From assembly GCA_964611205.1 (NCBI GenBank), contig CAZSZB010000003.1, positions 23,764-87,763 of the forward strand: DNA of 64,000 nt, given 5' to 3'. Of the stretch, positions 30,712 to 63,338 are shown piece after piece. Numbering within the stretch: position 1 is the first letter of the stretch; each line of letters opens with the position of its first letter. The notes beneath the pieces were generated by a model. The model was not told the DNA's origin, did no database searches, and was given only the letters and a program-made list of their open reading frames with translations. The position numbers were made by a program, and so were the translations under genes. Source of the DNA: an uncultured Candidatus Saccharibacteria bacterium (lineage in GTDB: Bacteria; Patescibacteriota; Minisyncoccia; Phycocordibacterales; UBA918).

Positions 30712-30772
30712 TTTATTGCTATTGCTACAGATACTAAAGTAATCGTCACTTGGTATCGAGCAACATAATATA

Positions 30773-34195: not shown

Positions 34196-34465
34196 TCGTT
34201 ACACGAGCAGTATACCTTTTGCATCAGATTACTTCGCAAGCTCATAATCTGACGCAAAAGCTTTCGAATCCCCACAGAAGTGACACTGAGTCACTTCTTC
34301 TCTCTCCACCAACAAAATAGCACCCCAAAAAGGGTGCTATTTTGTACTCGCGGGCTACGTGGGTTAAGTACCCACACGTTCAAGCCTTGTAAGGGTATTC
34401 TAGCGCATTTTGGGTATGCGAATCTAGGTACGTGGGTCGGGGTCTAAGAGTAGACAAAGTAGACA

Positions 34466-38002: not shown

Positions 38003-38227
38003 GTTTTTTGGACGGTTTTCATGACGCTAATAATTCTGGTAGGTAGCAAAAATCTCCTAACCAGGGCTGATATATCCCGTGAGATATACCCATACCCCTT
38101 TCGGGATATGACCGTCCAAAGTGGCCTCTGATTAGGAGGTTTTTACTTTGGACGGAATTTGCGACCATATCCTAGAAAACCAAGGGTTCTTTAGGGGTTA
38201 GGTCGACTGTATTCAGTTGTATGTACA

Positions 38228-39397: not shown

Positions 39398-41070
39398 ACA
39401 AGTTTGTTTAGCTTCTCCTCCTGAGAATCAAATTCAGCATCTACAGGCAACTCGTAGATTGATTTAGTTAAGTTGATGATCTCTTTTGCTATCTTTGATT
39501 TTGGATCAGGCAATGGAAACTTCTCAACGTATTGAGTAATAAAGCGTCTTCGTCCCGAGTAGAGTTTATTGTTGAAACTGTGGTCGTAGAACTCCTCGAC
39601 AAACTTTGAGTTTGCAATTGCCAAAGCGAGCCACAGCAATTCGGAATTATCTTCTTCTGAAGTTAACCAGTAGCAGTCTCCATTCACCACACCGCCTGTT
39701 TGATCCATCCAAAAGATTGGTTGTTCAGAAATATCTCTGAAGACTAACTTGGGCTTCTCCCAAGTCTTTGGATTATGAGGAACCCAGATCTCGTACCAGT
39801 TACGTCCTGAATCAATCACGTAACTTCTCGATGAGAGCTGATCTTTGTGTTCTTCAAGATACCTTTTTACGTTGGGATACTGATCAAGATCAATGGGCTT
39901 CTTTTTGTTGCCGATTTCCTCATGTGTGTAAACAACATGCTTCTTTGCTGAATCTGTTTTGTATCTTCTTGCGACGTGATGAGTAATCAGTGGCTTTAGA
40001 GTTTCAGGTAGGTTTCCATTAAATTTAGAAATGTCGGATACGATAAAAACATTGTCAGCAGTCGTTTTGATACCAACTTTTACCTTGCCAATATCCCCAA
40101 ATAAAAGTTGAGTCTTTTCTTTAACTTTCTTCAACCACAGGTCTGCTTTGTCATGAGCAAGCCTCCATGTGTCGCCGATCTTATTGCCAATATCAAGCTT
40201 GCCGTGCAGTACTTTAAAATGTTCCGATTCCTCTCCTTCGAGTGATTGAAAGACTTGTTGTGGATCAATCTTTGTATTCTTTCCCGAAAGATATATTGAT
40301 GTGAATCTAGGGTCAGCATCCTTTGATGTCTCTTTTTGCAAAAGCAGAACAGCTGGAAGCACTGCCGCTTCAAACAAGCGTGTATCTCCTAAATCCCATA
40401 CATGTAGAACACTAAAATCATTTAGGAGATTCTTTCGAACAGCTTCGCCTGATTTAGTGGTAAGAAAGCGATTGGAAACAATGATACCTACTACACCTTC
40501 TGGCTTAAGAAGTTTCTCAATTCCTTTTAGGAAAGCGTGATACAGATCAACTCGACCTGAGAGATTAAAATCTTCCGCAAGCTTTTGAGCCTTTTCAGCA
40601 CCCATGACTTGAGTTCTGACATAAGGCGGATTCGCAATAACAAGATCAAAGAGTGGAACATCTGTTTTTGAAAACAAAGAACCTCCATAAGTTTCAGAGA
40701 CCCATTCTAAGAAATCCTGAGTTTTAATATCAGCCTTAACTTCAGGGAAATCCTTCTTGATTAGATCCAGAGAAGCATCAACTGCATCTTGATTAATATC
40801 GAAACCGAATACTTCGATTTTATTGAATCCGCGCGAGTAGGCTATCTGTATAAGATTACGCAGAAGCTCCCCGTCACCAACAGCAGGATCAATTACTTTT
40901 AGTGTTTTGGTTTTCTTTAAATTCTTTTTCTCAACTTGATCAAAGATTTGAGATGCCACAAAGCCAGCCAAAGAAGTTGGGGTGTAATGAGCCCCTGTAT
41001 TCTTTCTTAATCCAGCATCGAGTTGTGCATCTAAAGTTGGCATTTGTAAACCTATTTTAACATTTTTCAA
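39376..41070 (-). CDS. N6-adenine DNA methyltransferase, gamma-class (Eco57I/TaqI-like) with C-terminal target-recognition half
   Basis: A TGAHYTP segment, motif I VIDPAVGDGELL and motif IV VIANPPY. 564 aa. Confidence 0.85.
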   Translation of the reverse strand: MKNVKIGLQMPTLDAQLDAGLRKNTGAHYTPTSLAGFVASQIFDQVEKKNLKKTKTLKVIDPAVGDGELLRNLIQIAYSRGFNKIEVFGFDINQDAVDASLDLIKKDFPEVKADIKTQDFLEWVSETYGGSLFSKTDVPLFDLVIANPPYVRTQVMGAEKAQKLAEDFNLSGRVDLYHAFLKGIEKLLKPEGVVGIIVSNRFLTTKSGEAVRKNLLNDFSVLHVWDLGDTRLFEAAVLPAVLLLQKETSKDADPRFTSIYLSGKNTKIDPQQVFQSLEGEESEHFKVLHGKLDIGNKIGDTWRLAHDKADLWLKKVKEKTQLLFGDIGKVKVGIKTTADNVFIVSDISKFNGNLPETLKPLITHHVARRYKTDSAKKHVVYTHEEIGNKKKPIDLDQYPNVKRYLEEHKDQLSSRSYVIDSGRNWYEIWVPHNPKTWEKPKLVFRDISEQPIFWMDQTGGVVNGDCYWLTSEEDNSELLWLALAIANSKFVEEFYDHSFNNKLYSGRRRFITQYVEKFPLPDPKSKIAKEIINLTKSIYELPVDAEFDSQEEKLNKLVYSAFGL

Positions 41071-41541: not shown

Positions 41542-42882
41542 TTGCGTCATTCATTGGGTTGTATGAATAACGCAATATCAATGCCGTACGGGACAACGGT
41601 ACAAGAGCAAGTCCCTGTAAAGGTGAAGTACTGCCTTTATGCGAGAAAGTCGACAGAATCGGAGGAGCGACAAGTGCTGTCCATAGATAGCCAGATCAAG
41701 GAGATGCTCCAGCTCGCGGATCGAGAATGTTTAGAGATTGTGGAGATGAAGCGAGAGTCACACTCTGCAAAAGAGACAGGTCAGCGACCAGTCTTCAATG
41801 AAATAATCGAGGAGATACGAGAAGGAAAATACAACGGTATCCTGACATGGGCACCAGACCGTATTTCAAGAAACGCAGGTGACCTTGGAAGGATTGTAGA
41901 CCTGATGGATTCGGGCAAGCTTGAGGAAATACGAACTTTTGGTCAGAAGTTCGGCAACAATCCAAACGAGAAGTTTCTCCTGATGATTCTGGGGTCACAA
42001 GCAAAGCTTGAGAACGACAATCGAGGAATCAACGTGAAGCGAGGTCTGCGAACGAGAGCGGAGATGGGGCTATGGTCAGGCATGCCTCCTCTCGGGTACG
42101 TGACGCAGGGACTAATGGAAAAGAAATGTCAGGTAGCGGTAGATCCGCTACGAGCACCAACAGTGAAGAAGATGTTTGAGAAAGTTGCATACGAACAATG
42201 GTCTGGGCGAAAGGTATACAACTGGCTGAGGTTTGAGCTGAACTTCTACACCAGAGGAAACAAACCACTCACTCTCGGAGGTGTGTATCGCATATTAGAA
42301 AACCCTTTCTACTATGGAGTGTTCGAGAGACCAAAGAAGAGCGGAAACTGGTATCAAGGAAAGCACACGCCACTCATCACGCAGGAACTGTTCGAGAAAG
42401 CAAAGGCACAGCTTAAGCGTGACCAGATAGTGCGAGAGACGAAGGAGTTCGCATTCACTAAGCTCTTCACCTGCGGGTACTGCGGAAGCGGGATATCCGC
42501 CGAAGAGAAATGGAAACAGCTCAAGGATGGCGGCGTGAACAGATACATCTACTACTCCTGTGCCAGATCAAGAGACCGCAACTGCAAGAACATGTACATA
42601 CGAGAAGAAGATTTGATACTCGAACTACTGAAAATACTCGACAAAGTGAACATCAACGAGCTTGGCATGCGAAAGAAACTGGAGGATGAGATTGCGAGGT
42701 TCAATATATTCCAAAGGTCGGTACTCGGCGCCAAAGAAAAGATAAAGACGGATGCAGAGACAGATATCAGGAACTATGCGAAGTACATCCTAAAAGAAGG
42801 GTCTACTACTGAAAAACGAGAGCTATTGGCTAACCTGAGATCACGAATTGAATACAAAGATAAGAACCTAAGGCTCGTCTAG
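41542..42882 (+). CDS. large serine recombinase (resolvase catalytic domain + recombinase domain + zinc ribbon)
   Basis: YARKSTESEERQ catalytic Ser motif, a recombinase domain, and CGYCGS..YYSC zinc-ribbon cysteines. Confidence 0.85.
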   Translation: MRHSLGCMNNAISMPYGTTVQEQVPVKVKYCLYARKSTESEERQVLSIDSQIKEMLQLADRECLEIVEMKRESHSAKETGQRPVFNEIIEEIREGKYNGILTWAPDRISRNAGDLGRIVDLMDSGKLEEIRTFGQKFGNNPNEKFLLMILGSQAKLENDNRGINVKRGLRTRAEMGLWSGMPPLGYVTQGLMEKKCQVAVDPLRAPTVKKMFEKVAYEQWSGRKVYNWLRFELNFYTRGNKPLTLGGVYRILENPFYYGVFERPKKSGNWYQGKHTPLITQELFEKAKAQLKRDQIVRETKEFAFTKLFTCGYCGSGISAEEKWKQLKDGGVNRYIYYSCARSRDRNCKNMYIREEDLILELLKILDKVNINELGMRKKLEDEIARFNIFQRSVLGAKEKIKTDAETDIRNYAKYILKEGSTTEKRELLANLRSRIEYKDKNLRLV

Positions 42883-42962: not shown

Positions 42963-45900
42963 ATGAGCCCAAATACCGCTCCACAACCAAACACGCTCAT
43001 TCTCCCAATCTTAGAATTGGGGCCTATTAGGCATGATCTCGGACAGATAAGGCATGTTTTGGATCTTGGCGGGAGCAAAGAGATAGTATCAACAGAAGAT
43101 TTCAATACTTCGCCTAGAGTTGTAGAAAAGCTACACGTACTCTCTGACGGACAAAGAGTATTGGTAACAAAGAAAAAGAAACTCCAGCTACCTGTCGATG
43201 TGGACGGAGTGCTTCATCGTAACGAAGAAGGAGAACTAAAGTGGGTTGCTCATAGAAAACTGGAAGCGATAGAACAGGATATTGCTCGAGACGGGATAGA
43301 AAGTGTCGCATCTGAAATAGCTGAAAGCTGGTCTGGGAAATTTAACTTTCGTGCAGAAGAGCGAGATGCTTCAGGAAACATCACTAAGGCAGGACTGAGA
43401 CCTCCACAAATCGGTGGACTTCATGCGATTGGTGCTCACTGGAGTCTCTACCAGCAACCTGCGACGGTTGTAATGCCCACTGGTACAGGAAAGACAGAAA
43501 CGATGTTGGCAACTCTCGTGGCATATTCACCAGGTAGCTTGCTTGTAGTGGTTCCCTCAAAAGTACTTCGGGATCAAACCGCAAGAAAATTTCTAACGTT
43601 AGGATTGCTTCGTTCTCTCGGTAATATTTCTCCAGAAACAAAAAATCCAATTGTTGGAGTAATCAAAAAGAGACCTCAGTCAGAACAAGATCTGGATATT
43701 TTTGATAAATGCAATGTCGTTATTGCAACCATGAGTGCCATGGGTGGCGAAGCATCCGATGACATATCCCTTCCTGTTGCCGACCATGCCAAAACACTGA
43801 TCGTCGACGAAGCACATCACATTGGAGCAAATGGATGGAGTGCTTTTCGAGAAAAATTTAAGGAAAACAAGGTTTTACAATTTACAGCAACCCCCTATCG
43901 AAGAGACGGAAAGCTTGTCGATGGAAAGGTTATTTATGAGTATCCTCTACACTCAGCCCAGAAAGACGGATATTTCAAAAATATCAACTTCGAGCCCGTA
44001 TATGAGATTGATCAAGAAGATGCGGATGAAGCAATAGCCACAAAGGCAGTAGAAGTGCTCAGAAGCGATATTGAGTCTGGAATGGACCATCTCATGATGG
44101 CAAGATGTGTGAGCATTGGTCGGGCAAGGACAATACATGCTATTTACAGCAGGATCGCTCCTGACCTGAACCCTGTTCTAATACATTCAGAGGCTGACGA
44201 AGCCGATGCTTCTATTGAGCTCATAAAATCTCGTGGAAGTCGTATTGCAGTTTGCGTAAATATGCTCGGAGAAGGTTTTGATTTGCCTCAACTTAAAATT
44301 GCAGCTGTCCACGATGCTCATAAAAGCCTTGCTATCCTTTTGCAATTTACGGGTAGATTCACTCGAAGTTCAGGAGAAGCAATTGGTGATGCGACTGTCG
44401 TGGCAAATATCGCAGATCAGGATGTCTCCTCATCGCTTGAACGTCTTTACAGTGAGGATGCGGATTGGAATCAATTGTTAAGTGAATTTAGCTCCGAAGC
44501 AGCAAAAGCCCATTCAGAGCTTATTGCCTTTTTGAATTCATCCGAAAGGCTTGATGACCCAGAAGATGAAGAGAAGATCGAAATATCCCACCATCTATTT
44601 CGCCCTACCTTCAGCACACTAATGTACGAAGCAGATTCTTTCACTCCTAAAAAATTCATCGAAGGAATTCCCAAAGGAACGACTGTGCACAATGTCTGGA
44701 TTCACGAAGAATCCAAAACCCTCTATTTTGTAACAAGACTAGAACCATCCATTCGTTGGACAAGATCACGCAAACTAAAGGATAGGACATGGGATTTGCA
44801 CGTTTTTCATTATGACGAAGCGCGCCACATGTTGTTCGTGTCCTCGAGTGACAAGTCCTCAGCGCATGAAAAAATTGCCAAGGCCATTGGTGCCACACGA
44901 CTCATTTCTGGTGACGTTATTTTCCGAGCACTAGGACGAATCAATAGACTTATCTTTCAGAACGTGGGAGTAACCAAGCATGGCCGTCGAAACCTGAGGT
45001 ATGCAATGTATACAGGTTCTGATGTTGCTACAGCGTTGAGTGTGTCTGAACGAGCTGGTTCAGTTAAATCAAACCTAAGTGGTACTGGTTGGGAAAATGG
45101 TGAACCTGTCACAATCGGATGCTCCTACAAAGGACGTGTGTGGGCTAGAGATCCTGGATCAATACCTGAACTCGTAAAATGGTGTGAAGCTGTTGGCGAT
45201 AAAATTAAAGATGAAGGAATAGACACGGCAGATATTATTGCCAACGTTCTTATCCCCGAAGAAGTAACAGCATTGCCAGATAAACAGGTACTCAGCATTG
45301 AGTGGCCTCTGGAAATTATCAGACAGTCGGAAGAAAGAGTGGTTATCAAGAAAGGAGCTGTTGAGAGATCAATTTCAATGTTTGATCTTCAATTCGTTAA
45401 AACTGATCTGGTAACCAGTCAGGTTGAATTTAATCTTGTCACAGATCCTGAGGAGGTTTGGGCAAAATTAGTTCTGACAGTGGGTGGCGATGACGGATTC
45501 AAAGTCACAAAAAGCACAAGAGAAGCTGTAACAATTCGTGTTGGGAATTTGGAACTTCCAATCGAGGAGTATTTTTCAAATTACCCTCCGATGATTCGCT
45601 TCATAGATATTTCTGAGCTTGACGGCAACTTACTCATTAAGCCGCAAAACACTCAAGACCTTGTGTTTCCTGAAGAAAGTTTTGAGGTCTGGGACTGGGA
45701 AGGAGTCGACATGCAAAAGGAGTCTATTTGGAAAGGTGGTAATGAACGTCAGGACTCAATCCAATGGAAAGCGGCTCAGCAGTTTATTGCTGGAAACTTC
45801 GATGTGGTCTTTGATGATGACAGTGCGGGAGAAGCTGCTGATCTTGTCTGTTTTAAGGAAGAAGATGATCATATACGGTTAGCTTTGGTGCATTGTAAAT

Positions 45901-46256
45901 TCACAAAAGGTACAACCGCAGGTGAGCGAGTAAGTGACGTTGTGGAAGTTTCATCTCAAGCGGTTCGATCAGCAAAATGGAAATGGAAATTTAAAGATTT
46001 GTGCCGACACGTTCTTGAAAGAGAGAAGAGGCTTTCTGGTGGTCGCACAACTAGATTCCTCAAAGGAATTGGATCAGATATGAATAGGTTCGTGAAGTTG
46101 AGCAGATTCAAGGAAATTAGACCAGAGATCATTATCGTTCAACCTGGCTTATCAAAGGCTAATCACACGGCAGATCAGACAGCCGTATTAGCAGCAGCTC
46201 ATAGCTATCTCAAGGAGACAGTCGGAGTTGATCTTGATGTTATTTGTAGCGAATAA
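42963..46256 (+). CDS. 1097-aa SF2 (DEAH / ResIII-type) helicase with roughly 600-aa C-terminal extension carrying a possible degenerate nuclease-like motif
   Basis: Q-like motif LRPPQ, Walker A MPTGTGKTET, DEAH box LIVDEAHH and motif VI QFTGRFTR. The C-terminal segment FDVVFDDD..ADLVCFK..ALVHCKFT is PD-(D/E)xK-like but not canonical. Confidence 0.8.
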   Translation: MSPNTAPQPNTLILPILELGPIRHDLGQIRHVLDLGGSKEIVSTEDFNTSPRVVEKLHVLSDGQRVLVTKKKKLQLPVDVDGVLHRNEEGELKWVAHRKLEAIEQDIARDGIESVASEIAESWSGKFNFRAEERDASGNITKAGLRPPQIGGLHAIGAHWSLYQQPATVVMPTGTGKTETMLATLVAYSPGSLLVVVPSKVLRDQTARKFLTLGLLRSLGNISPETKNPIVGVIKKRPQSEQDLDIFDKCNVVIATMSAMGGEASDDISLPVADHAKTLIVDEAHHIGANGWSAFREKFKENKVLQFTATPYRRDGKLVDGKVIYEYPLHSAQKDGYFKNINFEPVYEIDQEDADEAIATKAVEVLRSDIESGMDHLMMARCVSIGRARTIHAIYSRIAPDLNPVLIHSEADEADASIELIKSRGSRIAVCVNMLGEGFDLPQLKIAAVHDAHKSLAILLQFTGRFTRSSGEAIGDATVVANIADQDVSSSLERLYSEDADWNQLLSEFSSEAAKAHSELIAFLNSSERLDDPEDEEKIEISHHLFRPTFSTLMYEADSFTPKKFIEGIPKGTTVHNVWIHEESKTLYFVTRLEPSIRWTRSRKLKDRTWDLHVFHYDEARHMLFVSSSDKSSAHEKIAKAIGATRLISGDVIFRALGRINRLIFQNVGVTKHGRRNLRYAMYTGSDVATALSVSERAGSVKSNLSGTGWENGEPVTIGCSYKGRVWARDPGSIPELVKWCEAVGDKIKDEGIDTADIIANVLIPEEVTALPDKQVLSIEWPLEIIRQSEERVVIKKGAVERSISMFDLQFVKTDLVTSQVEFNLVTDPEEVWAKLVLTVGGDDGFKVTKSTREAVTIRVGNLELPIEEYFSNYPPMIRFIDISELDGNLLIKPQNTQDLVFPEESFEVWDWEGVDMQKESIWKGGNERQDSIQWKAAQQFIAGNFDVVFDDDSAGEAADLVCFKEEDDHIRLALVHCKFTKGTTAGERVSDVVEVSSQAVRSAKWKWKFKDLCRHVLEREKRLSGGRTTRFLKGIGSDMNRFVKLSRFKEIRPEIIIVQPGLSKANHTADQTAVLAAAHSYLKETVGVDLDVICSE

Positions 46257-46295: not shown

Positions 46296-46385
46296 TTAGT
46301 TCTCTTGGCGGAGAGAGAGGGATTCGAACCCTCGGTACGCGTAAACGTACAACGGTTTTCAAGACCGCCGCCTTCAACCACTCAG
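46296..46385 (-). tRNA. tRNA-Ser (anticodon TGA), long variable arm, CCA encoded
   Basis: Hand-folded: GGAGAGA acceptor, GCTGAGTGGTTGAAGGC D-arm, anticodon loop CUUGAAA, long extra arm, and a GGTTCGAATCC T-loop. Confidence 0.9.
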
Positions 46386-46541
46386 CCATCTCTCCAGATA
46401 TTAAATTGTTGCGGTAAACGATTGTTATCAGTTCAACCAGCTTACCACCGCATGCTTAATCCTTGATAAGGATTGTGACCAGGATATTACCAGAAAAAAA
46501 GCTTTTTTCCAACTATATTTTCATCGTGTTATGATTATCGA

Positions 46542-50180: not shown

Positions 50181-50582
50181 ATGGATAAATCCGATATTAT
50201 AAAAATTGCAAAACATGTATTTAAGAAAGGTGGTGGTTCATCAGATCATTCCTTTTTCAACCCAAGCCGAGACTGGCTAATTGGAATTTTTATTTTTATT
50301 ATCATCCTTTTAGTAGGTAGTTATATCAGTGGCTTAAACTATGCTCGATATCATAATGTTGAAGTTACCGAGCTCGGAACAAAAACAAATCTTCCTAAAT
50401 ACAATGAAGTGAGGGTAAACGAAGCAATTTTAAAATATAAAAGTATCGATGCTAAATTCAAAGGATTGATAAGTGAGACACCAAATGGAACTCGGAGGTT
50501 AGAATTAATTGATAAAGACAACGTTGAACCCGAGCCTGACATTAGAAGAGACACTCCACCAGAAAGTTACTCGGCTGAGTAG
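50181..50582 (+). CDS. small membrane-anchored protein (possible PilP-like)
   Basis: One TM, and operon position. Confidence 0.3.
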   Translation: MDKSDIIKIAKHVFKKGGGSSDHSFFNPSRDWLIGIFIFIIILLVGSYISGLNYARYHNVEVTELGTKTNLPKYNEVRVNEAILKYKSIDAKFKGLISETPNGTRRLELIDKDNVEPEPDIRRDTPPESYSAE

Positions 50583-50672
50583 TTAATTTTTATATTTAGT
50601 TAAGTTTAATAATTAAAACAAATACATTACACTTTGTTTCTATAAAATATAAAATTTAGTTATAATGCTCGA

Positions 50673-51236
50673 ATGAAAAATGATTTACTTACTATAAGTG
50701 ATCGCTATAAACAGGCAGCAGATATTTTGATTGAAGAGTCTGGTTTAGTTAATGTTCTTAAAAAATATGGCTATATTGAATACGAAGGTGCTTACTCTGG
50801 TAATGTAATGATGCATGGTGATATTGATATAAAGGTAATTCGGGATTCTGAGTATACTCAAGATGATATATTTATTATCCTAAGAGACATTTATGATACT
50901 TGTGATAAATACTTCAGAAGTTTGTTTATCAAAGCAGACTGGGATGATCCAAGAATTGGACAACAATTTCCATACGGTAGATATATAGGGCTTAAAACAT
51001 ACTTTAATGATGAGCGTTGGAAGTTTGATATCTGGTTCATTTCTGAAAAAGAAAATGCTAAAGAAAAAACAAAACTAGATATTAGTAAGGTTAGTCTCAC
51101 TGAAGAGCAACGCATTAAAATTTTAGAGTTTAAACAATTCAGGAAAGATCAAAATATTAAAATTTCGGGACAAGAAATATACGAAGCAGTTTTAGAAAAG
51201 AATTTTATAAGTCCTGAATTGTTTTTTAACAAATAA
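50673..51236 (+). CDS. nucleotidyltransferase-fold protein (pol-beta superfamily GS..DxD motif) in about 30% GC islet
   Basis: YEGAYSGNVMMHGDIDIKV matches G-S-x(n)-D-h-D. Confidence 0.4.
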   Translation: MKNDLLTISDRYKQAADILIEESGLVNVLKKYGYIEYEGAYSGNVMMHGDIDIKVIRDSEYTQDDIFIILRDIYDTCDKYFRSLFIKADWDDPRIGQQFPYGRYIGLKTYFNDERWKFDIWFISEKENAKEKTKLDISKVSLTEEQRIKILEFKQFRKDQNIKISGQEIYEAVLEKNFISPELFFNK

Positions 51237-51238
51237 GT

Positions 51239-51673
51239 ATGAATTTAATAAACAGATGGCATGACATTCTCAATATGCCCAAACTTGACGAAGTTTGGCA
51301 TAGACAAGATATGTCAGATGAACTAGCAGAATATGAAGAAGCTTGTGGTTTTTTAAATAATTGGAGTGAATTATCAGATGTTGTCTATACTTATAGTCGT
51401 GCAAGGTGGTCTGGACACACCACAATATATTTTCCACTCTCTAAAACAAAATTATTTTTTGGTGTTATATATATGATACCTAAGTACACATTACGTTGGC
51501 GATTTTTCCGTAAAATAGGTCATCAGTTTGATAAAAATCTTAATATTTCAGAAGTTCGTAACCCTAAAAAAATTGAAAAACTGAAAAAGATTGCTAGTAA
51601 GTACGAACTTGATCCTGAAATATTTGTAATAAAAGCTGAAAAAATGCGTCGAAGGACAATTTTATTAAAATAG
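51239..51673 (+). CDS. hypothetical protein, partner of NTase-fold gene (possible R-x6-H HEPN-like motif)
   Basis: RFFRKIGH segment, translationally coupled, and equally AT-rich. Confidence 0.3.
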   Translation: MNLINRWHDILNMPKLDEVWHRQDMSDELAEYEEACGFLNNWSELSDVVYTYSRARWSGHTTIYFPLSKTKLFFGVIYMIPKYTLRWRFFRKIGHQFDKNLNISEVRNPKKIEKLKKIASKYELDPEIFVIKAEKMRRRTILLK

Positions 51674-51712
51674 TTTATTTACTCCTTAGCTTTTAATTAT
51701 GTAAACAGTTCT

Positions 51713-54142
51713 CTAAAGATCCCTCGTTATTTTCAAGTTTACAGAATTTTGTTTTTGTTCTAAAAAACGACCGATGCGTCTTTTTGAAAATTCTGTAGTA
51801 ACAAAATACAGTGCAGTAAGTGAGAGAATTAGACCTAGGTCAGAAAAAGATGGTCTGACAAACCCAAAGTAATAAGCGGTTAATGGGATGAACGGAATAA
51901 GGAGAGTAGTCACAAATGCTCCTAGTGATAGCCATATAATACTCTTAGCTGGCGGGCCTGCTTTTTCAATAGGTAACATAGAACGAATGGAAAAAATCAG
52001 TACTAGTTCAGTTAGAATGCTTGCTATGAACCAGTTAGTTTGCAAAATACTGGCTCCTTCTTTGTAGAATAAACCGAACCATAAAAAGTCGAATACTGTA
52101 CTCACTAAGCCAACTGTAATAAAAATAATATAAAGAGTTTTAAAATCGTATTTCTGTGGATGTTGGATTTCGTTTTTATTTACTCGGTCAAAGGCAATAG
52201 CCATTAAAGGAAAGTCAGATAGTAGATTCAGTAATAATAATTGTTTCGGCAGCATTGGTAAAAAAGTAATGAAGAGGGAACTAATTGCCACTGCATAGAA
52301 ATTACCAAAGTTGGCAATCAAAGTAGTACGGATATATTTCAAAGTGTTGGCGTGGGTTTCTCTACCAATCTGAATACCGTCAATAATGACTCGCAAATCT
52401 GATTTTAATAAAATAATATCCGCTGTCTCTCGTGATACATCTGAAGCTGACTTGACCACTAGAGCTACGTCAGCTGTTTTTAAGGCTGCTGCATCATTAA
52501 TTCCTTCTCCTAAAAATCCGACGGTATACTGCTCTTTAAGTAGTTGAATCAAAGTCACTTTTTGTTCTGGGGTTGTCCGGGCGAAAACACGAATAGTGGA
52601 TAGTCGCTCAAATTGTTCAGTAGTTGATAGAGCAAAGAAGGCATTAGCCTCGATTGCTTCTTCAGGTTTGGTCACCAAATTCACTTCACGTCCAATGGCT
52701 TCAGCTACCCGCAGAGAATCGCCAGTAATGATAGTGACAGCCACATTCAAGTCGCGGGCTTGGTTGAGAGTTTTTATAGTGGTACTTTTTAAGGCATCAG
52801 AGAAGGAGATAAAGCCACCAAATGAAGCACCCGAACCAGTATCGTAACTTACACCTAAAATACGCCGACCAAGTTTCTCTTCTGCCTCTAGCCACTCTTC
52901 CACTAGCGCCTGATCGATTAGTCCTTGTTCAATAAAATATTCCGGAGCCCCACGACGAATATGTATTTGGTTTCCGCGAGCATCTTTTACGATGGCACCA
53001 TTGCTGCGTAAAGCAGGTTCGAAAGCCTCCTCGGTAACCAACTGATATTCTTCCAAATGAGACTTTTGTTCGGCACTGAGTGCACTTAAAGTAGCTCGGT
53101 CAAATGGTTCAGGATTGGCTTTGTGAGTACTGTTAACAGTTAGTGCAGAGAGAATGAGTGGGTGCCACCGACTATCAGGTATAAGATAGTCATTTTGAAA
53201 TTCCAGTTCGTTTTTTGTAATGGTACCAGTTTTATCGGTGCATAAAAGTTCGATTGAACCAAGATCTTGGATAGAGGATAGGCGTTTTACAATCACGCCT
53301 TTCTTTACTAGCTTTAACGCACCATTTGAGAGGGAGAAAGCCATCACTAAAGGTAGAGCTTCGGGGATGACTGATATAGCCAAGGCGATAGCAAAGATAA
53401 GTAGGTGGGGGATATCAGCTGCACTGCCATCAATTAAAATATTAGCTAGAACAACAAATAATAACGTCACTAAAGTTACTCGCAGTATAAAGGTACTGAT
53501 GCGATCGATACTCTTTACATTATGGCTCTTACTCTCGATTGCGGAAGTCTTTTTAAGAATTTGAGCTAGTCTAGTATTTTTTCCAGTAGCTATTACTTCA
53601 GCGAAGGCTAAGCCTTTCACTACAACAATTCCTTGGAGAATTAAAGATTCATCGGTTGCGTCATCACTGCTGGCGTGTTTAGTAACAGGAATACTTTCAC
53701 CGGTGAAAGTTGTTTCGTCCACCTGAAAGCCAGTAGTAAAACGTATAACACAATCGGCTGGCACTATATCTCCCGACTCGAGTTTTATGATATCTCCAGG
53801 CACTAGTTCTGAAACTGGTACCTCTTTATCTGTGTTATTTCGTCTAACAGTAATAGACCGCGCTAGGTATGATTGTAGTTGACTGGCAGTGGCGTTTGAT
53901 TTGTACTCTTGAAAAAAACTGAGTCCAATACTTAAGACAACAAACACGAGAATGAAACTAGCGTCAAATGGCTCTTCTAGCATATAGGTAATTGCTGAGG
54001 CCAATATTAAGAGAATGACAAAGATACTTTTGAATTGCCGAGCAAGCAACCGTAGAGTTTGGTACTTAGGTTGAGGGATTTCATTTAACCCAAATTCAGC
54101 TTGCCGCTGAGTAATTTCTTTTGTGGTTAGTCCAGGGAACAT
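51713..54142 (-). CDS. cation-transporting P-type ATPase
   Basis: CTDKTGTITKN phosphorylation motif, a GEGINDAAALKTADVAL hinge, a TGES motif and 10 TM segments. Confidence 0.9.
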   Translation of the reverse strand: MFPGLTTKEITQRQAEFGLNEIPQPKYQTLRLLARQFKSIFVILLILASAITYMLEEPFDASFILVFVVLSIGLSFFQEYKSNATASQLQSYLARSITVRRNNTDKEVPVSELVPGDIIKLESGDIVPADCVIRFTTGFQVDETTFTGESIPVTKHASSDDATDESLILQGIVVVKGLAFAEVIATGKNTRLAQILKKTSAIESKSHNVKSIDRISTFILRVTLVTLLFVVLANILIDGSAADIPHLLIFAIALAISVIPEALPLVMAFSLSNGALKLVKKGVIVKRLSSIQDLGSIELLCTDKTGTITKNELEFQNDYLIPDSRWHPLILSALTVNSTHKANPEPFDRATLSALSAEQKSHLEEYQLVTEEAFEPALRSNGAIVKDARGNQIHIRRGAPEYFIEQGLIDQALVEEWLEAEEKLGRRILGVSYDTGSGASFGGFISFSDALKSTTIKTLNQARDLNVAVTIITGDSLRVAEAIGREVNLVTKPEEAIEANAFFALSTTEQFERLSTIRVFARTTPEQKVTLIQLLKEQYTVGFLGEGINDAAALKTADVALVVKSASDVSRETADIILLKSDLRVIIDGIQIGRETHANTLKYIRTTLIANFGNFYAVAISSLFITFLPMLPKQLLLLNLLSDFPLMAIAFDRVNKNEIQHPQKYDFKTLYIIFITVGLVSTVFDFLWFGLFYKEGASILQTNWFIASILTELVLIFSIRSMLPIEKAGPPAKSIIWLSLGAFVTTLLIPFIPLTAYYFGFVRPSFSDLGLILSLTALYFVTTEFSKRRIGRFLEQKQNSVNLKITRDL

Positions 54143-54253
54143 CTGTAAAGTATAGCCAATTATAAAAGTTATTCATCTTAAGGGGGTTAGCAGTTTGCTT
54201 TCTAAAATTAAAAGACCGATAGCAAAGCTGTTGGTCTTTTAATTTTACCAATG

Positions 54254-54325
54254 TGCCCCCACCAGGAATCGAACCCAGATCAAGAGCTTAGAAGTCTCCT
54301 GTTTTATCCATTAAACTATAGGGGC
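54254..54325 (-). tRNA. tRNA-Arg (anticodon TCT)
   Basis: Hand-folded: acceptor GCCCCUA/UGGGGGC, D-arm GTTTAATGGATAAAAC, anticodon loop CUUCUAA, and a GGTTCGATTCC T-loop. Confidence 0.75.
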
Positions 54326-54526
54326 AACAAACCCAATATATATGTTCTGGGCAGAGATACAATAGCAAATTATGGTGAGAATTTAAACCAAAGCAGACGG
54401 GAGCTTCGCCCCCGTCTGCTTTGGTTTAAATAATTTAGTTGTTTTATCCAGAAAAAAGAGCGGGTCAAACAAGTGATATAAATATTGTGCTTGTGACACG
54501 CTCTTGAGTTTTTCTGATCTGGCCGC

Positions 54527-54691
54527 CTATTCAGCAGCCAGATCAGGTTGCTCCGGTATCTTGGCAGGTTCGGAATACTGTTCCTCCACCAGCTCGAACT
54601 CTCGGCTGCCCTCGGTGAGATTCCCGTGGGTTATGGCGTCGGCTAACTGAGGATATTTGTCCGCAATCAGCTTAACTTCTTTGTGGCACAT
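54527..54691 (-). CDS. candidate 54-aa ORF in GC-rich patch with consensus SD (AGGAGG-6-ATG)
   Basis: Hand translation gives MCHKEVKLIADKYPQLADAITHGNLTEGSREFELVEEQYSEPAKIPEQPDLAAE. Local GC is about 55%. Confidence 0.3.
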   Translation of the reverse strand: MCHKEVKLIADKYPQLADAITHGNLTEGSREFELVEEQYSEPAKIPEQPDLAAE

Positions 54692-55356
54692 TTTATCCTC
54701 CTGTCTGTCTATGCCCTGACCTCACTATAACTGCTGTGGGGTGAGATTTTCTCCTGACTTTGTGGATAAAGAAGTTAATTAATTAGTGAAAAGAAAATAA
54801 AGCCCAAACTGTAAAGATTATCGATTCTTAGAATAGTATCGTAACTGCAAATAATACAGATTGACCCACGAAAGATGCAAATCAATCCGTGGGTCAGATC
54901 AGGCGGTTCGAATCTTGTATTGATTGCCAGCACTGCCGGCAAAGAACATGGTCTTTATCTGGGGGAGGTCCCCAGCGACCCTGTATACAAACTCGAATTC
55001 TCCGACCACATTCGCAGTATCTAGACATAACGATCTCCCTACGACCGTGGTTGTCTCTTTATTATGAATATAATTGATAGCTTGTCAATTAATTATTTTC
55101 CTACCCGAGTATTTGTATAATTGTGGGGTCAAGTTTCTAATTCGCTTTGCTCATAAGAACTTCCTCCTCGGACTCGACTGTTTCCTTTAAAGGGAGCGAA
55201 AGATTTGAATCTTACAGATTCGGTACACCTTTTGGGGGTTTTAATTCGCTTTGCTCTTAAAACTCCACAAAAGCTTTTCAAATCTCACGTAACAGTGTGT
55301 AAGCACTGTTACTTCATCGCGCACAAGAAAAACCGCCAAAGGCGATTTTCTAATTG

Positions 55357-55429
55357 TGCGCGATGAGAGATTTGAACTCCCGACCTTCGCAGTGTAAATG
55401 CGCTGCTCTACCAACTGAGCTAATCGCGC
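55357..55429 (-). tRNA. tRNA-Val (anticodon TAC)
   Basis: Hand-folded: GCGCGAU acceptor, AGCTCAGTTGGTAGAGC D-arm, anticodon loop UUUACAC, and a GGGAGTTCAAATCTCTC T-arm. A terminator hairpin lies at 55327-55349. Confidence 0.85.
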
Positions 55430-55914
55430 AGACGTGTTGTCTGTGTTTTTTTGTAAAGAGTGTATGTAATACGCCTCCTCACAGGAGCTGTACAGGTTAT
55501 CAGTATTTTTCGTAAACTTAAAATATCAGGTAACCTCTTGCGAAGTGACGTTAGGTCACTTCTCACTCCACCACCTTCGCTAATTACGCGTCGGCACCTG
55601 TAATAGGTACGTCCACGTTCTGAATGTGTGGCAAAAAGTATAGCGTATATAAGACTAAATGCAATAGTTTTACTATTTAAACGATAAATATATTAGGTAA
55701 AAATGGAGGTCGATCCCCAAAGGGATCGACCTCCATACTTGTTACCGACTCTTGCCTTGACGCCAGGGTGTGCGTCCCTGATTGTTGTGTTCGGTTTCGT
55801 CACGAGCTCGAATCGGTGTACCAAGAATCATCTTTGCCTCCTCTGTTGCTGATTCCTCCGCTCCATATATTTTATAAGTCGATTTCTGTTTATTTGCAAG
55901 GTATACTTCAACCC

Positions 55915-56187
55915 ATGATGGAAATTCATTGTGTGGTTAGTGGTTTGGTACAGCAAGTGTCTTACCGTACCTACGTACAAGATTCGGCAACTTTGCTCGG
56001 TATTTGTGGTTGGGTAGAGAATCTTCCAGATGGTACAGTAGAAGTATTAGCTCAGGGGGAAAAGGATTTGCTTAATGATTTTGTGGAATATCTACACGAA
56101 GGTTCACTTAAAGCAAAGGTAGAGTCGGTGGCTGTAGATTGGCAAACCCCAAAAGTGATATATGATGACTTTTCGGTTAAATTTTAA
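55915..56187 (+). CDS. acyP: acylphosphatase
   Basis: VSGLVQQVSYRTYVQ..GICGWVENLPDGTVEV..GE is the acylphosphatase signature. The start is trimmed to the internal Met. Confidence 0.7.
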   Translation: MMEIHCVVSGLVQQVSYRTYVQDSATLLGICGWVENLPDGTVEVLAQGEKDLLNDFVEYLHEGSLKAKVESVAVDWQTPKVIYDDFSVKF

Positions 56188-56937
56188 TTGTTTGTGTCTA
56201 ATAATATAGAAATTTTATTTGAGAATGATGATGTCCTGGTAGTTGATAAACCAGTTGGTTTGTTAGTGCATGAAGACGGTCATAATGAAGGAGAAACTTT
56301 GGTCGATTGGTTTTTACACCGGCAGCCAGAGGCTGCCGGCGTTGGCGAACCTGGTTATTCATCACAAGGTAAACTACTAGAACGATCGGGTGTGGTTCAT
56401 CGTCTAGATCGTAATACATCGGGGGTGATGATTTTGGCAAAAAAACAGGAGACTTTTACATATTTGAAAGATCAGTTTCAGAAACGAGCTGTTAAAAAAA
56501 CCTACATCGCATTAGTTTATGGATTGATGAAAGAAGAATGGGGAACAATAAGTAAACCAATTGGTCGTTCACCTAGTGATTATCGCAAACGGCTTTCTGG
56601 TCGGGGGGCAGTTGGTAGTATACGAGAAGCAGAAACGGATTGGCGATGTCTCAAGACAGGACAATACAATAATGAACCTTTTTCTTATTTACAGTTAAAT
56701 CCTAAAACCGGACGTACTCATCAGATTAGAGTCCACCTGAGATCTATAAGTCGTCCGGTGGTAGGGGACAATTTATATGCTGAAAGTGAGATGTCCAAAT
56801 CAAATAATCTTGAATTAGACCGCATGGCCTTACACGCACTGGAATTAAGGTTGTCCTTGCCGGGTGGAGAAGAAAAAGTATTTACATCATCAGTCCCACA
56901 TGAGTTAGCAGAGGCAATCGAATTAATAGAAAAATAG
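56188..56937 (+). CDS. RluA-family pseudouridine synthase
   Basis: A VHRLDRNTSGVMILAKK catalytic Asp motif and a VVDKPVGLLVH segment. Confidence 0.85.
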   Translation: MFVSNNIEILFENDDVLVVDKPVGLLVHEDGHNEGETLVDWFLHRQPEAAGVGEPGYSSQGKLLERSGVVHRLDRNTSGVMILAKKQETFTYLKDQFQKRAVKKTYIALVYGLMKEEWGTISKPIGRSPSDYRKRLSGRGAVGSIREAETDWRCLKTGQYNNEPFSYLQLNPKTGRTHQIRVHLRSISRPVVGDNLYAESEMSKSNNLELDRMALHALELRLSLPGGEEKVFTSSVPHELAEAIELIEK

Positions 56938-57014
56938 GACATTGCGTGACGGCGGCTCTTATGGTAAAGTACGCCCGTTTTAACGACTATTTGTAGTTAT
57001 TAAGAGTAAAAAAT

Positions 57015-57623
57015 ATGAACACAGTAAAAGCCGGTGTCACAATCTCTCCAGTTAACATGGAGGACCGTAAGAATCTAGGTCTTAGATCTGGAGATACAGT
57101 TCGTGTACACCAAAAAATTCAAGATAAAGGAAAAACCCGACTTCAGATTTTTGAAGGTTTGGTGTTGGCACGTAAGCACGGAAGTGAACCGGGAGCTACT
57201 TTTACAGTACGAAAAGTTGCTAGTGGAGTAGGAGTAGAAAAAATCTACCCACTGTACTCACCTAATATAGATAAGATTGAGATTGTAAAAAGAGCCAAAG
57301 TTCGTCGAGCAAAACTTTACTACATACGTGAGAAGGTTGCGCGCGAGATTAAACGACAGATGCGTCGTATGAACCTAGTCGACATTTCAACAGAATCAGA
57401 GACTGAAGAAGCCAAAAAAGCTGAGGAAGCAGAAAAAGCAGCTGCCGAAGCTGCAGCCAAGGCAGAAGAAGAAGCTACAGCAGCCTTAGAGCAAGAGGCA
57501 GCAGAAAAGGAAGAGGTTGCTGCAGAAGAGACTCCAGCAGAATCAACTGAAGAAGTTGATGTTAAGGAAGAAGCTTCAGAGGCAGAAAAAACTGAAGAGG
57601 AAGAAAGCGAAAAGAAGGAATAA
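57015..57623 (+). CDS. rplS: 50S ribosomal protein L19 with about 80-aa Glu/Ala-rich C-terminal extension
   Basis: L19 core (GDTVRVHQKIQDKGKTRLQIFEGLVLARK..FTVRKVASGVGVEKIYPLYSP), then an AEEAEKAAAEAAAKAEEE repeat region. Confidence 0.85.
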   Translation: MNTVKAGVTISPVNMEDRKNLGLRSGDTVRVHQKIQDKGKTRLQIFEGLVLARKHGSEPGATFTVRKVASGVGVEKIYPLYSPNIDKIEIVKRAKVRRAKLYYIREKVAREIKRQMRRMNLVDISTESETEEAKKAEEAEKAAAEAAAKAEEEATAALEQEAAEKEEVAAEETPAESTEEVDVKEEASEAEKTEEEESEKKE

Positions 57624-57737
57624 TATTTTCCAAAGTCAGTACGAAAAACCCCGGCATGGCCGGGGTTTTTCGTACTGTAACCATGATCATGGTTCTTAAC
57701 TCCAATTACTTAATTACTTTGGGTATAATAAAGAAGT

Positions 57738-58202
57738 ATGATTGAAACATTATTTCCTTTAGGGGTATCACAATATGTGATAGGTGGTTTATTAGTTGGA
57801 ATAGGAATTGCTATTCCGTTTCTTTTAACCGGGTTAGTGGCTGGTGTCTCGACAGTCTATACATCAACTTGGTCGTATCTCTCTGGGGGAAGTTTTTTTC
57901 AGAGTGGTAAATTTATCAAGGTTAGAATACAAAGATTGTTGCTGGCAGGTGGTTTAGTTACCGGTGGAATTATATATTTGTTCTTCATAAATGATGGAGC
58001 GGTATTAATGACAGAACTAGAACCGTGGCGTTTACTACTAGGCGGAATATTGGCCGGTATCGGGACTCGAATGGCTAACGGTTGTACTTCCGGTCATGGT
58101 ATTTGTGGTAATGCGAGTCTGGAGAAATCATCTATGGTAGCAACAGTCACGTTTTTAGTAACAGGTATTTTAGTAGCATACTTAACAGCTTTTATTTTCT
58201 AG
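57738..58202 (+). CDS. YeeE/YedE family transporter, N-terminal half
   Basis: GCTSGHGICG motif and four TM helices. Confidence 0.65.
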   Translation: MIETLFPLGVSQYVIGGLLVGIGIAIPFLLTGLVAGVSTVYTSTWSYLSGGSFFQSGKFIKVRIQRLLLAGGLVTGGIIYLFFINDGAVLMTELEPWRLLLGGILAGIGTRMANGCTSGHGICGNASLEKSSMVATVTFLVTGILVAYLTAFIF

Positions 58203-58203
58203 T

Positions 58204-58617
58204 ATGAAAAATTTCTCAATGTATGTCGGTGGGGTAGTATTCGGACTCGGTCTGGCTATTGCTGGAGCTACACAACCGGAAATAGTTCTGTCTTTTTTGC
58301 GCCTAGAAGATTTAGGTTTGGCTCTAGTGATTGGTGTGGCGTTAGTCCTCACTTTATTTGTTTTTCAAGTAGTGACCCGAGTTATGGGTAAGCCTGTGTT
58401 TGGTGGTCAGTTTGACTTGCATGACGGATTTCCAATTACCCGCGGTACGATACTGGGGTCTATTATCTTTGGTATTGGCTGGGGTATTTCTGGTTTATGT
58501 CCAGCTACTTCTCTAGCAGCTATTGGCGCAGGTAATCTTCCGGTAGTTTGGGGAGTCATTGGTATGTTTGTCGGGGCTTTCATCTACGGATCGATTCGTA
58601 GCCGGCAGAGCAAGTAA
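58204..58617 (+). CDS. YeeE/YedE family transporter, C-terminal half
   Basis: GISGLCPATS motif, adjacent and translationally coupled. Confidence 0.65.
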   Translation: MKNFSMYVGGVVFGLGLAIAGATQPEIVLSFLRLEDLGLALVIGVALVLTLFVFQVVTRVMGKPVFGGQFDLHDGFPITRGTILGSIIFGIGWGISGLCPATSLAAIGAGNLPVVWGVIGMFVGAFIYGSIRSRQSK

Positions 58618-63137: not shown

Positions 63138-63165
63138 CTAGGGAGACTACCGGGAAGGAATCGGT

Positions 63166-63221
63166 CACGAGTTACTAAGTTTTTTATTTCGTTTCATTCA
63201 TAAAAATCTAAGTACTCTCGA
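63166..63221. repeat. tRNA-associated MITE-like element copy
   Basis: Termini cacgagttactaagt and ctaagtactctcga, adjacent to tRNA-His. Confidence 0.6.
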
Positions 63222-63338
63222 CCCCGACTCGTCTGTCGCAAGCGACATGACTCCGTCTTTCGATTCCCGGACAGAAGCAAAGCAATTTGCTTCTTTAGCC
63301 GCTCCATACGCAAAAATCCCCACAAGGGGATTTTGCTT

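Follow-up and report, generated by a model that had tools for sequence, protein, structure and literature searches.

A structured cassette on the 3' flank of tRNA-Val

We analysed a stretch of 64,000 nucleotides (nt), hereafter the window, which is chromosomal DNA of Saccharibacteria (TM7): dnaA, dnaN, polA, ruvB, and tyrS were found in it, and its overall GC content is 0.40. The subject is the gap of about 1 kb between two tRNA genes of the minus strand, tRNA-Arg(tct) (54253-54325) and tRNA-Val(TAC) (55356..55429), both identified by ARAGORN, the latter also matched by the Rfam tRNA model (69.4 bits). The features of this interval are several objects and not a single element. Directly 3' of tRNA-Val lies a complete structured cassette of about 150 nt (55198-55355), one member of a tRNA-linked repeat family. 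The remainder (54330-55197) is restricted to this species and includes a second short hairpin of the cassette type, with the same loop as cassette hairpin P2 (see below), and a GC-richer segment. On balance, we regard the gap as an insertion hot spot, in which attachment sites are stacked on the 3' flank of tRNA-Val.

An initial annotation, made from the letters of the DNA, had proposed that the interval holds no open reading frame (ORF) above 62 aa, which the ORF list bears out, and that it is a "landing pad of degenerated inserts" and small RNA or peptide genes rather than plain spacer. All the features that it names were recovered, though shifted by a few bases. The landing pad agrees with what we found: a cassette bounded by copies of the tRNA 3' end, a hairpin equivalent to one part of it, a copy number that varies between strains, and a strain-specific boundary on the tRNA-Arg side. 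The Rfam scan and the comparison of orthologous intervals that it suggested as checks were both performed. Rfam 15 gave nothing relevant for 54100-55800 at E ≤ 10 and no family for any segment of the interval at the gathering or the permissive threshold, and the matches at gathering score across the window were tRNAs and the LOOT RNA (38069-38204) only. No match was obtained by blastn against phage and plasmid collections with the interval as query. Terminator-like sites are abundant, with 10 between 54000 and 56000 against 1.6 ± 1.2 expected.

Read in the sense of the tRNA, the cassette follows the order X, T1, X' (split by the hairpin P1 in the Val copies), P2, junction, P3, and DR2, all on the minus strand. 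X, the first direct repeat (DR1), consists of the final ~22 nt of tRNA-Val from the T-loop to the 3' end (TTCAAATCTCTCATCGCGCACA) and is the source that the cassette copies. The first part of the cassette proper is T1, a probable terminator hairpin (AAAAUCGCC-UUU-GGCGGUUUU, 55328..55350), which the terminator scan did not flag and which rests on the minimum free energy (MFE) fold and on its position, occupied by a terminator in the canonical family members as well. Next comes X'a (TTGTGCGCGATGA, 55314..55326), in which the acceptor 3' strand of tRNA-Val and the trailer are repeated in inverted orientation (13 nt, 100% complementary), and then P1, a 9-bp hairpin lying within the inverted copy (AGTAACAGTG-CTTACA-CACTGTTAC, 55289..55313), which is seen in the fold and as a self-complementary blastn match at 55289-55312; the relative L011 carries the same P1 hairpin.

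The cassette core (55199..55289) is matched with 94.1 bits (E = 1.5e-21) by R1, a covariance model derived from 48 copies, all of them metagenomic, and from no sequence of the window. It comprises X'b (GAGATTTGAA, 55286..55277), the ~17-bp hairpin P2 (55273..55229) with the loop GAGCAAAGCGAA at 55256..55245, the junction CCAAAAGGTGTACC between P2 and P3 (CCAAAAGGTRTAC in the general cassette unit), P3 itself (GAATCT-GTA-AGATTC, 55221..55207; in the general unit a 5-6-bp stem with the loop GTA(A)), and a remnant of the second direct repeat, DR2 (TTCAAATCT, 55209..55201). DR2 is shortened in the window and intact in the contigs L003 and L008.

The inverted segment complements the 3' strand of the tRNA exactly: it has GAGAG at the place where the 5' T-stem strand of the tRNA itself has GGGAG. 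Furthermore, X'a co-varies with the genomic trailer, as CAA/TTG in the window and CGA/TCG in L011. Because of this exact complementarity and of the trailer covariation, X' is a true inverted copy and not a remnant of the tRNA 5' half, an origin ruled out by the G-U position included in the match. A retrovirus-like primer-binding site for the mature tRNA was also ruled out, as the segment pairs with the genomic trailer CAA/CGA and not with CCA.

Two other features of the locus belong to the same family. The 28-bp direct repeat of the initial annotation (TTAATTCGCTTTGCTC) exists, but as 22 nt at 91% identity (27 nt at 89% by blastn) at 55135-55156 and 55239-55260. The second of these copies is the apex of P2, and the first lies in a second P2-like hairpin on the minus strand (55131..55162) with the identical loop GAGCAAAGCGAA (55152..55141) and a partial R1 match of 13.1 bits, which represents a cassette in decay or a short "type-B" copy; this hairpin motif (TTATGARCAAAGYGAATTAG) is also found behind tRNA-Gln in L017. 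On the other side of tRNA-Val, 5' of the gene, there is a divergent cassette copy (55466..55572, minus strand), recovered by nhmmer with E = 1.1e-17 using a profile that included this copy, and weakly by the independent R1 (18 bits, E = 0.03). Its P1 is the GAAGTGAC-N5-GTCACTTC hairpin, correctly reported in the initial annotation and located at 55542-55562; related copies occupy 30284-30306 and 34270-34298. The copy 5' of tRNA-Val is missing from the orthologous spacer of L011. The repeat and the GAAGTGAC hairpin are parts of one tRNA-tied element family, which that annotation had left unnoticed. Between cassette M2 and the acylphosphatase gene, we also observed a perfect, terminator-like 15-bp hairpin (ATGGAGGTCGATCCC/GGGATCGACCTCCAT) followed by a T run (55703-55736).

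A cassette family that copies the adjoining tRNA

Eight full-length R1 matches (seven with E ≤ 0.03 and one marginal) and one partial match are present in the 64-kb window, and the orientation of all the full-length ones is that of the nearest tRNA. Besides the copy 3' of tRNA-Val (55199-55289) and that 5' of it (55466-55550), they include two plus-strand copies behind tRNA-Lys (26453-26536, 53 bits, and 26657-26736, 36 bits), the tRNA-Lys copy having a perfect 21-nt DR2 at 26526-26546. The others lie on the minus strand: one behind tRNA-Arg(gcg) (30206-30292, extending to 30306, 38.7 bits), two with no adjoining tRNA, namely 33628-33711 (extending to 33724, 28.3 bits) and the Ser-type copy M4 (34186-34275, full extent 34186-34298, 74.4 bits), and the marginal one behind tRNA-His (63155-63229, 16.6 bits, E = 0.068), which has a DR2-like piece.

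Beyond the window, metagenome contigs contain 100 exact matches to the pattern GAAAAGCTTTT-N10-14-GAGYRAAGCGAA, and viral contigs contain none. A co-oriented tRNA lies within 400 nt upstream in 52 of the 81 instances with enough upstream sequence, and in the tRNA-adjacent copies the tRNA 3' end typically precedes the pattern by 58-98 nt. The strict pattern is missing at 48 of the 94 tRNAs of the same contigs. The offset of DR2 is fixed, at 34-36 nt after the P2 loop, and in most cases 17-22 of its 22 nt match the tRNA in question. None of 12 canonical cassette loci has an Rfam family, and no description of the cassette was found in the literature searched; the family is thus apparently undescribed, being absent from Rfam and from that literature.

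The specificity of these repeats was evaluated on 34 non-redundant tRNA-adjacent cassettes, covering 16 tRNA types, with 340 non-cognate comparisons. At least 12 of 13 DR2 positions agreed with the cognate tRNA in 20/34 cassettes, and with other tRNAs in 0/340 comparisons. The two halves of the inverted copy gave a similar picture, as X'a matched the cognate tRNA in 19/34 cassettes and other tRNAs in 3/340 comparisons, and X'b in 17/34 and 2/340, respectively.

Covariation is strong. In an alignment of 59 sequences, 90.9% of cells are paired, against at most 52% when the partners are slid, and double-change cells number 300 against 106 in shuffles, with 0/500 shuffles attaining the observed number. 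At P3 positions, four types of pair occur and zero cells are unpaired, and several P3 and P2 positions have three or four pair types. The loops (12 nt in P2) and the junction are invariant while the stems co-vary, and five fully compensatory changes separate the window cassette from its L011 orthologue. G-U pairs are more numerous than A-C pairs (69 vs 42). MFE folds gave the same shape in 10/10 canonical copies: T1 forms a separate hairpin, and X' pairs with DR2 in a stem closing a junction that bears P2, P3, and, where present, P1. A second terminator, T2, lies 3' of DR2.

Some further repeats and gene calls were observed around the cassettes. A second repeat family (GAGAGTACTTAGTA ... ACTTAGTAACTCGTGAC) stands beside them at ~30150-30215, ~26765-26825, and ~30040-30060 of the window and at ~880-960 of L011, from a related genus, and tRNA-Arg(gcg) is closely preceded, on its upstream side, by an ~89-nt tandem direct repeat (CCGAGAGCAGCTCTCGCAACAAATTCGACGTCAGAAGAATTTGTTCCAGTAGAGCAAGCGCCC, 30561-30712). 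Gene callers and a naive ORF scan yielded ORFs of 174 and 246 aa across cassettes or arrays (L012 1059-1583, L013 1092-1616, and L040 7134-7874), which are almost certainly spurious.

We then compared the locus among strains and relatives. The contig L007 (SRR8449813) is 100% identical to 50194-58500 of the window. The closest species-representative genome, L006, is a metagenome-assembled genome of an uncultured Saccharibacteria whose ATPase is 70% identical, and it shows no synteny at the tRNA-Arg/tRNA-Val interval. Relatives were recovered through the pseudouridine synthase gene, namely L011-L013 (71% aa identity) and L015/L016 (68%), in which the gene order acylphosphatase, RluA-type synthase, and L19 is kept. 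Window positions 55198-55430 are conserved at 82.5% in L011, and the cassette alone at 79%, against ~70% for the flanking coding DNA. In L015/L016, tRNA-Arg(tct) and tRNA-Val(tac) are adjacent, only 517 nt apart, with unrelated sequence between them. Behind tRNA-Val, the cassette occurs in the window and in L011 and is missing in L015/L016. The reverse holds for tRNA-Ser(tga), which carries a homologous cassette in L015/L016 and has none directly adjoining it in the window.

Copy number and variants also differ. L001, L004, and L005 (99.4-99.8% identical to the window) all begin at 55230, while L008 and L009, on the other side, end at 55198-55206. Breaks at 55198-55230 occur in contigs from five samples, indicating a repeated or variable node there. 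Coherently, L003 contains at least two tandem copies of a 166-nt unit, the joint passing through an intact copy of the tRNA-Val 3' end, and in L008 the unit is followed by an intact TTCAAATCTCTCATCGCGCAC and a different trailer. At the tRNA-Trp site, L053 and L102/L103 have near-identical downstream flanks and different cassette variants, and L063 has variant 1 followed twice by variant 2, the outermost copy without DR2.

On the tRNA-Arg side, L002 and L003 are 96-99% identical to the window over 54307-55115/55376, whereas their tRNA-Arg is only 86% identical, with an extra 113 nt before it and different genes after it; because the highly identical segment abuts so divergent a tRNA-Arg and different genes, this side is a strain-specific recombination boundary. 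Strains of a single species thus have different genes downstream of tRNA-Arg: a P-type ATPase is found in the window (51713-54142) and CYTH and thymidylate kinase genes in L002 (1100-3472); L009, from the same sample as L002, has 99.85% nucleotide identity to the RluA side of the window. A piece of ~70-113 nt resembling the tRNA-Arg 5' half was observed upstream of tRNA-Arg in L002 (780-891), L003 (1097-1208), and L015/L016 (~5020-5090, reverse strand). It bears a P1-like hairpin with the loop CTGGGAG or CTGAGA and is deleted in the window between two TAGTTTAATGG repeats. In L016, a partial duplicate of the tRNA-Arg 3' half immediately follows the gene.

Finally, cassettes cap gene-carrying islands. 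Between tRNA-Ser(tga) (46306-46395, minus strand) and the Ser-type cassette M4, whose X'a is TGGTGGAGAGAGA and whose DR2 is GAATCCCTCTC--TCCGCCA, lies an island at 34.3-46.3 kb that is GC-richer than its surroundings (0.43-0.49 vs ~0.39). Besides restriction-modification genes, its contents include a large serine recombinase, and the features assigned in it are a ParB-N6 methylase (35309-36652), the LOOT RNA (73.4 bits), an Eco57I-like methylase (39376-41070), the recombinase (41542-42882), and a ResIII helicase (42963-46256). In L016, the Ser cassette directly abuts tRNA-Ser, with no island between them. Homologues of the ParB-methylase and of orf191 flank cassettes in L084 and L104, serine recombinase homologues lie 4-5.5 kb from cassettes in L029, L048, and L095, and in L017 a 1791-aa ORF separates tRNA-Gln from a Gln-type cassette.

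Two possible explanations: integration behind tRNA genes or a structured RNA

Islands and phages that use tRNA genes, together with cis-mobilizable elements, are characterized by repeats from the T-loop to the 3' end, restoration of the tRNA, fixed orientation, tandem accretion, and units reduced to attachment sites. The cassettes resemble them in the direct repeat that starts in the T-loop, in an orientation fixed by the tRNA, in presence/absence, and in tandem accretion. They differ in that most have no integrase beside them, in the size of the unit, which is 10-100 times smaller than the cis-mobilizable elements described so far, and in the inverted copy and structured core. We consider that the cassettes are miniature elements integrating at tRNA 3' ends, with a probability of roughly 0.55.

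Under this hypothesis, a site-specific recombinase would insert cassettes and islands into the tRNA gene at its T-loop, and each newcomer would bring a new tRNA 3' end and a terminator. The former 3' end and older inserts would be displaced outward and decay there, leaving the newest insert proximal to the tRNA. The 150-nt cassettes would be cargo-less and non-autonomous, moved in trans by the recombinase of an island, one candidate being the large serine recombinase encoded at 41542-42882. When folded as a single strand, the X':X stem may serve as the attachment site.

The closest published parallel is the ssrA islands of Dehalococcoides, which insert in the T-loop, several of them in tandem, and have at each boundary a direct repeat (20 bp) of the 3' end of the gene with a conserved 15-bp motif upstream of it. 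They encode a large serine recombinase of the CcrB type and a ParB-domain protein, and their cargo-less units were interpreted as cis-mobilizable elements (PMC3146451). Those islands use one gene, whereas the cassettes target at least 16 tRNA types; moreover, the sequence adjacent to the cassette repeat is not a 15-bp motif but a co-varying three-hairpin structure of ~100 nt, a full inverted copy of the target is added, and most units are ~150 nt long without genes.

A folded attachment site would also recall other systems. Elements of the CTX-phi type exploit Xer recombinases, and the attC sites of integrons are single-strand hairpin attachment sites. The cassette is similar in its X ... X'-spacer-X arrangement, with copies ~90 nt apart that can fold into a target-like duplex, in its co-oriented tandem arrays, and in keeping structure rather than stem sequence. 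Its target is nonetheless a tRNA gene and not dif or attI, and a single-stranded intermediate is pure inference. No GTTRRRY-type core was seen by eye in the cassette consensus, nor were Xer-site or attC motifs, no motif search having been made, and neither IntI nor phage genes recur in the clusters of genes most often found within 3 kb of cassettes.

Several points weigh against integration. The forms observed do not include an excised or empty-site form, no recombinase has been experimentally tied to the cassettes, and the most frequent gene clusters within 3 kb of them are housekeeping genes. A self-carried attachment site leaves unexplained the origin of more than 16 tRNA-specific versions as well as the retention of the full inverted copy X'. 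Stems that co-vary around unchanging loops are a textbook mark of functional RNAs, and the excess of G-U over A-C pairs mildly favours a single-stranded molecule of the sense strand. In addition, the array pattern could arise by deletions between direct repeats within one ancestral array; the higher scores of tRNA-proximal copies are a trend only, the best copy being the proximal one in ~9 of 12 multi-copy chains; and the micro-ORF segment of the interval, described below, has no distal tRNA-Val repeat as its boundary.

The main rival is a conserved non-coding RNA gene, read through T1 with the tRNA or after it, a possibility that we rate clearly lower than integration but take seriously. The X':DR2 stem would mimic the acceptor/T-stem helix, bear P1, P2, and P3, and act on the cognate tRNA or its enzymes, as a decoy or a processing partner, while selection, gene conversion, and palindrome correction would keep X' and DR2 matched to the tRNA. 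The strong covariation with invariant loops and junction, the terminator T2 after DR2, the G-U excess, the housekeeping neighbours, and the lack of copies in viral contigs speak for it, as does the higher identity of the cassette than of the coding flanks between the window and L011, with most stem changes being compensatory. On the other hand, a terminator separates the tRNA from the cassette and there is no evident promoter. A housekeeping RNA would not usually occur in mixed tandem arrays, differ in variant between orthologous sites, or be present in one genus and absent from another; islands carrying genes are capped by the same cassette; and about half of the tRNAs in the same contigs lack the strict pattern. 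Known tRNA-like RNAs include the tRNA-like domain of tmRNA, the bacterial Y RNAs (YrlA), and mascRNA. The cassette has in common with them a stem like that of the acceptor/T-stem and a location permitting co-processing with a tRNA, but its helix is fully paired through T-loop and trailer, leaving neither a free 3' end nor a T-loop, and its stem has the sequence of the neighbouring tRNA and no fixed identity or Rfam match. The RNA-gene and integrating-element readings are compatible and not mutually exclusive. As for the "small RNA" of the initial annotation, the repeat and hairpins do form a covarying structured element, but not a known small RNA.

With still lower confidence, the cassette can be proposed to be a self-contained single-stranded element of ~150 nt, DNA or RNA, whose closing stem copies the tRNA target in both orientations. 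This would amount to a programmable, re-writable integration based on a hairpin or guide, operating in Saccharibacteria and relatives on mini-cassettes and 10-kb islands alike, and we think it unlikely.

Retrons, diversity-generating retroelements, and group I/II introns were rejected on size and because no reverse transcriptase was found among the commonest clusters of cassette neighbours or the window ORFs scanned.

Micro-ORFs, the remaining explanations, and significance

The rest of the interval (54330-55197) contains two micro-ORFs on the minus strand. The first, of 54 codons (54691..54527), encodes an acidic product and was present as described initially behind AGGAGG (54702..54697), although the spacer is 5 nt and not 6 and the local GC content is 0.515 and not ~55%. 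Read in frame, it has a codon log-likelihood of +17.4, which compares with 21.1 ± 8.1 for real genes and drops to −44 and −26 when the ORF is read out of frame, and its GC content at third codon positions (GC3) is 0.60 against 0.33 for the genome. The protein occurs in six contigs with no sequence variation among them. A word-indexed search of 5.8 billion proteins found only itself, and a full HMMER scan of 1.84 billion representatives found itself and P0002, a repeat-rich glycosyltransferase rejected as a homologue (BLASTP E = 7.5). Scans of genome, viral, and metagenome collections with the back-translated ORF gave no match. The composition and codon usage make an orphan gene of foreign composition plausible. 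A 13-bp hairpin (54514..54546, minus strand, z = −6.0) spans its stop codon.

The second micro-ORF, of 44 codons (54894..55028), follows GGGAG and contains a CxC...CxxC motif. Its coding status is doubtful: the codon log-likelihood is −12.7, while only 3% of real-gene windows fall below 0, it carries the non-synonymous polymorphism Q16R, and no homologue was found by the word-indexed search of 5.8 billion proteins. Judging from its codon score, its polymorphism, and the mutated −10 hexamer of the promoter-like site described below, it is probably not a gene. The peptide genes foreseen by the initial annotation are upheld in part by the 54-codon ORF, codon-plausible and without homologue, and not by the 44-codon ORF, which was added in this analysis. 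Neither product matched Pfam, NCBIfam, PHROGs, or PADLOC, and single-sequence AlphaFold models reached a predicted local distance difference test (pLDDT) score of 69 and, for the 44-codon ORF, 56, too poor for a fold search.

Upstream of the 44-codon ORF lies a promoter-like site, TTGACA-16-CATAAT (55061..55088, minus strand), with 11/12 consensus matches; the final T of its −10 hexamer is C in L001, L002, and L004, which weakens the promoter case. A terminator-like hairpin (TGACCCACG/CGTGGGTCA, followed by AUUAUUU) was identified by the terminator scan at 54856..54890 on the minus strand, with arms reaching 54896 (z = −4.8). It corresponds to the second hairpin of the initial annotation, whose arms lie at 54862-54870 and 54888-54896, about 9 nt to the left of the position first given.

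Close to tRNA-Arg, the hairpin first described with a 17-bp stem at 54393-54430 was found to be larger, with 24-nt arms (54381-54404/54408-54431) that are 96% complementary. Its folding energy is −40.3 kcal/mol (z = −10.1), equalled by 0/200 shuffles. In L002 its loop is inverted and its stem has a compensatory C-G to T-A change, and the corresponding place in L015 is taken by another strong hairpin, of 20 bp and unrelated in sequence. The terminator scan flags short inner sub-stems only, and the U tracts are imperfect. The hairpin is best read, from its sequence and placement, as a two-way terminator that would insulate the candidate tRNA-Arg promoter directly downstream of it, TTGCTA-18-CATATA (54335..54368, minus strand), recognized in the sequence and not flagged by the promoter scan. 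The block TTG(C/T)TATTGTATCTCTGC / TTGCTATTGTATCTCTGC is common to the window, L015, and L002.

The segment 54330-55197 is most likely the remnant of an older, GC-richer insert. Matches to a distal tRNA-Val repeat that could bound it were at chance level only, and for this reason its status as an insert remnant is inferred. A host-gene fragment as the source of the GC-rich patches found no support, the six-frame ORFs having no Pfam domain. Recurrent GC-rich micro-ORFs led by a Shine-Dalgarno sequence, at 33933-34052 and in the L015 interval, fit remnants of older inserts. The former, of 39 codons on the minus strand between M4 and M5, has a GC3 of 0.78 and a codon score of +10.4 and is the "first" micro-ORF implied by the initial annotation; beside it lies a 90-aa ORF (33260-33532, plus strand) matching phrog_7775 with E = 1.4e-10.

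It is improbable that the two micro-ORFs form a functional pair of small proteins, toxin-antitoxin-like or defence cargo of an old island, and thereby the functional core of the interval. Both have a Shine-Dalgarno sequence and a downstream hairpin, a near-consensus promoter precedes one of them, the 54-codon ORF has plausible codon usage and does not vary among its six contigs, and a comparable micro-ORF lies downstream of a cassette/tRNA at 33933-34052 and in L015. These features are outweighed by the empty homology and domain searches, in which the sole other match, P0002, is a repeat artefact, by the non-coding score, the polymorphism, and the −10 mutation in three contigs that affect the 44-codon ORF, and by the low-confidence structure models.

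A miniature repeat driven by a transposase is very unlikely, be it a miniature inverted-repeat transposable element (MITE), a palindrome-associated element of the IS200/IS605 type, or a TnpB/IscB-style guide-RNA remnant with the flanking DNA as 3' guide. Several hairpins per unit of ~100 nt, many copies per genome, and a variable 3' segment beside a conserved scaffold, superficially guide-like, do recall such repeats. The ends of the cassette, however, vary with the adjacent tRNA, with no conserved inverted repeats, and the duplication, ~21 nt long, invariably spans the tRNA from T-loop to 3' end. The orientation tracks the tRNA and not replication, both strands being used by copies that all lie above the coordinates of dnaA/dnaN, taken as the origin with no skew test. 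A transposase or TnpB-like ORF is neither recurrent in the commonest clusters within 3 kb of cassettes nor present among the 30 longer window ORFs scanned against Pfam. Unlike MITEs and IS200/IS605 elements, the cassette has no family-wide terminal repeats, short fixed target, or replication-strand bias. In the BOX, RUP, Correia, REP/BIME, and Rickettsia palindromic elements, the ends are conserved throughout each family and unconnected with tRNA genes. The cassettes are likewise multi-copy, hairpin-rich intergenic units of ~100-150 nt, often near terminators, and differ from them in having ends copied from the adjacent tRNA and a fixed position behind it.

An ordinary spacer of tRNA terminators and promoters, its repeats and micro-ORFs due to chance, has very little left in its favour: although several hairpins resemble plain terminators, the 44-codon ORF scores as non-coding, and most of 54330-55100 is not conserved in other genera, it is contradicted for 55198-55355, where "rather than plain spacer" holds, by the independent model match and the covariation over 59 sequences, and elsewhere by the gene-like codon statistics of the 54-codon ORF and by a segment 96-99% identical in strains with so divergent an adjoining tRNA-Arg.

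With regard to the wider setting, genes resembling a type IV secretion system (T4SS) were observed at 1-9200 of the window, including a TraG P-loop ATPase (3385-5223) and a T4SS pilin-domain protein (8224-9171). The genes dnaA (10796-12178) and dnaN (12511-13605) are preceded by an AT-rich gap of 440 nt (10356-13605 for the whole region), and because of this gap the replication origin is probably near 10.4-10.8 kb.

The hairpins and micro-ORFs of the interval are modest findings, and its interest lies in the cassette family to which the 28-bp repeat led. Genomes of Saccharibacteria and their relatives are tiny and dense, yet seven to eight full-length matches and one partial match are found in a single 64-kb window. 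If the cassettes are miniature integrating elements, they would mark every active insertion hot spot in these genomes and provide a sequence handle for locating islands, and they would show how direct and inverted copies can fit an element to many tRNA targets, for which known integrases offer no explanation. As RNAs, they would instead form an extensive and unrecognised family of structured, tRNA-linked molecules in a lineage that is difficult to work on. On either reading, the family can be used in the annotation of RNAs and mobile elements, where it avoids spurious gene calls.

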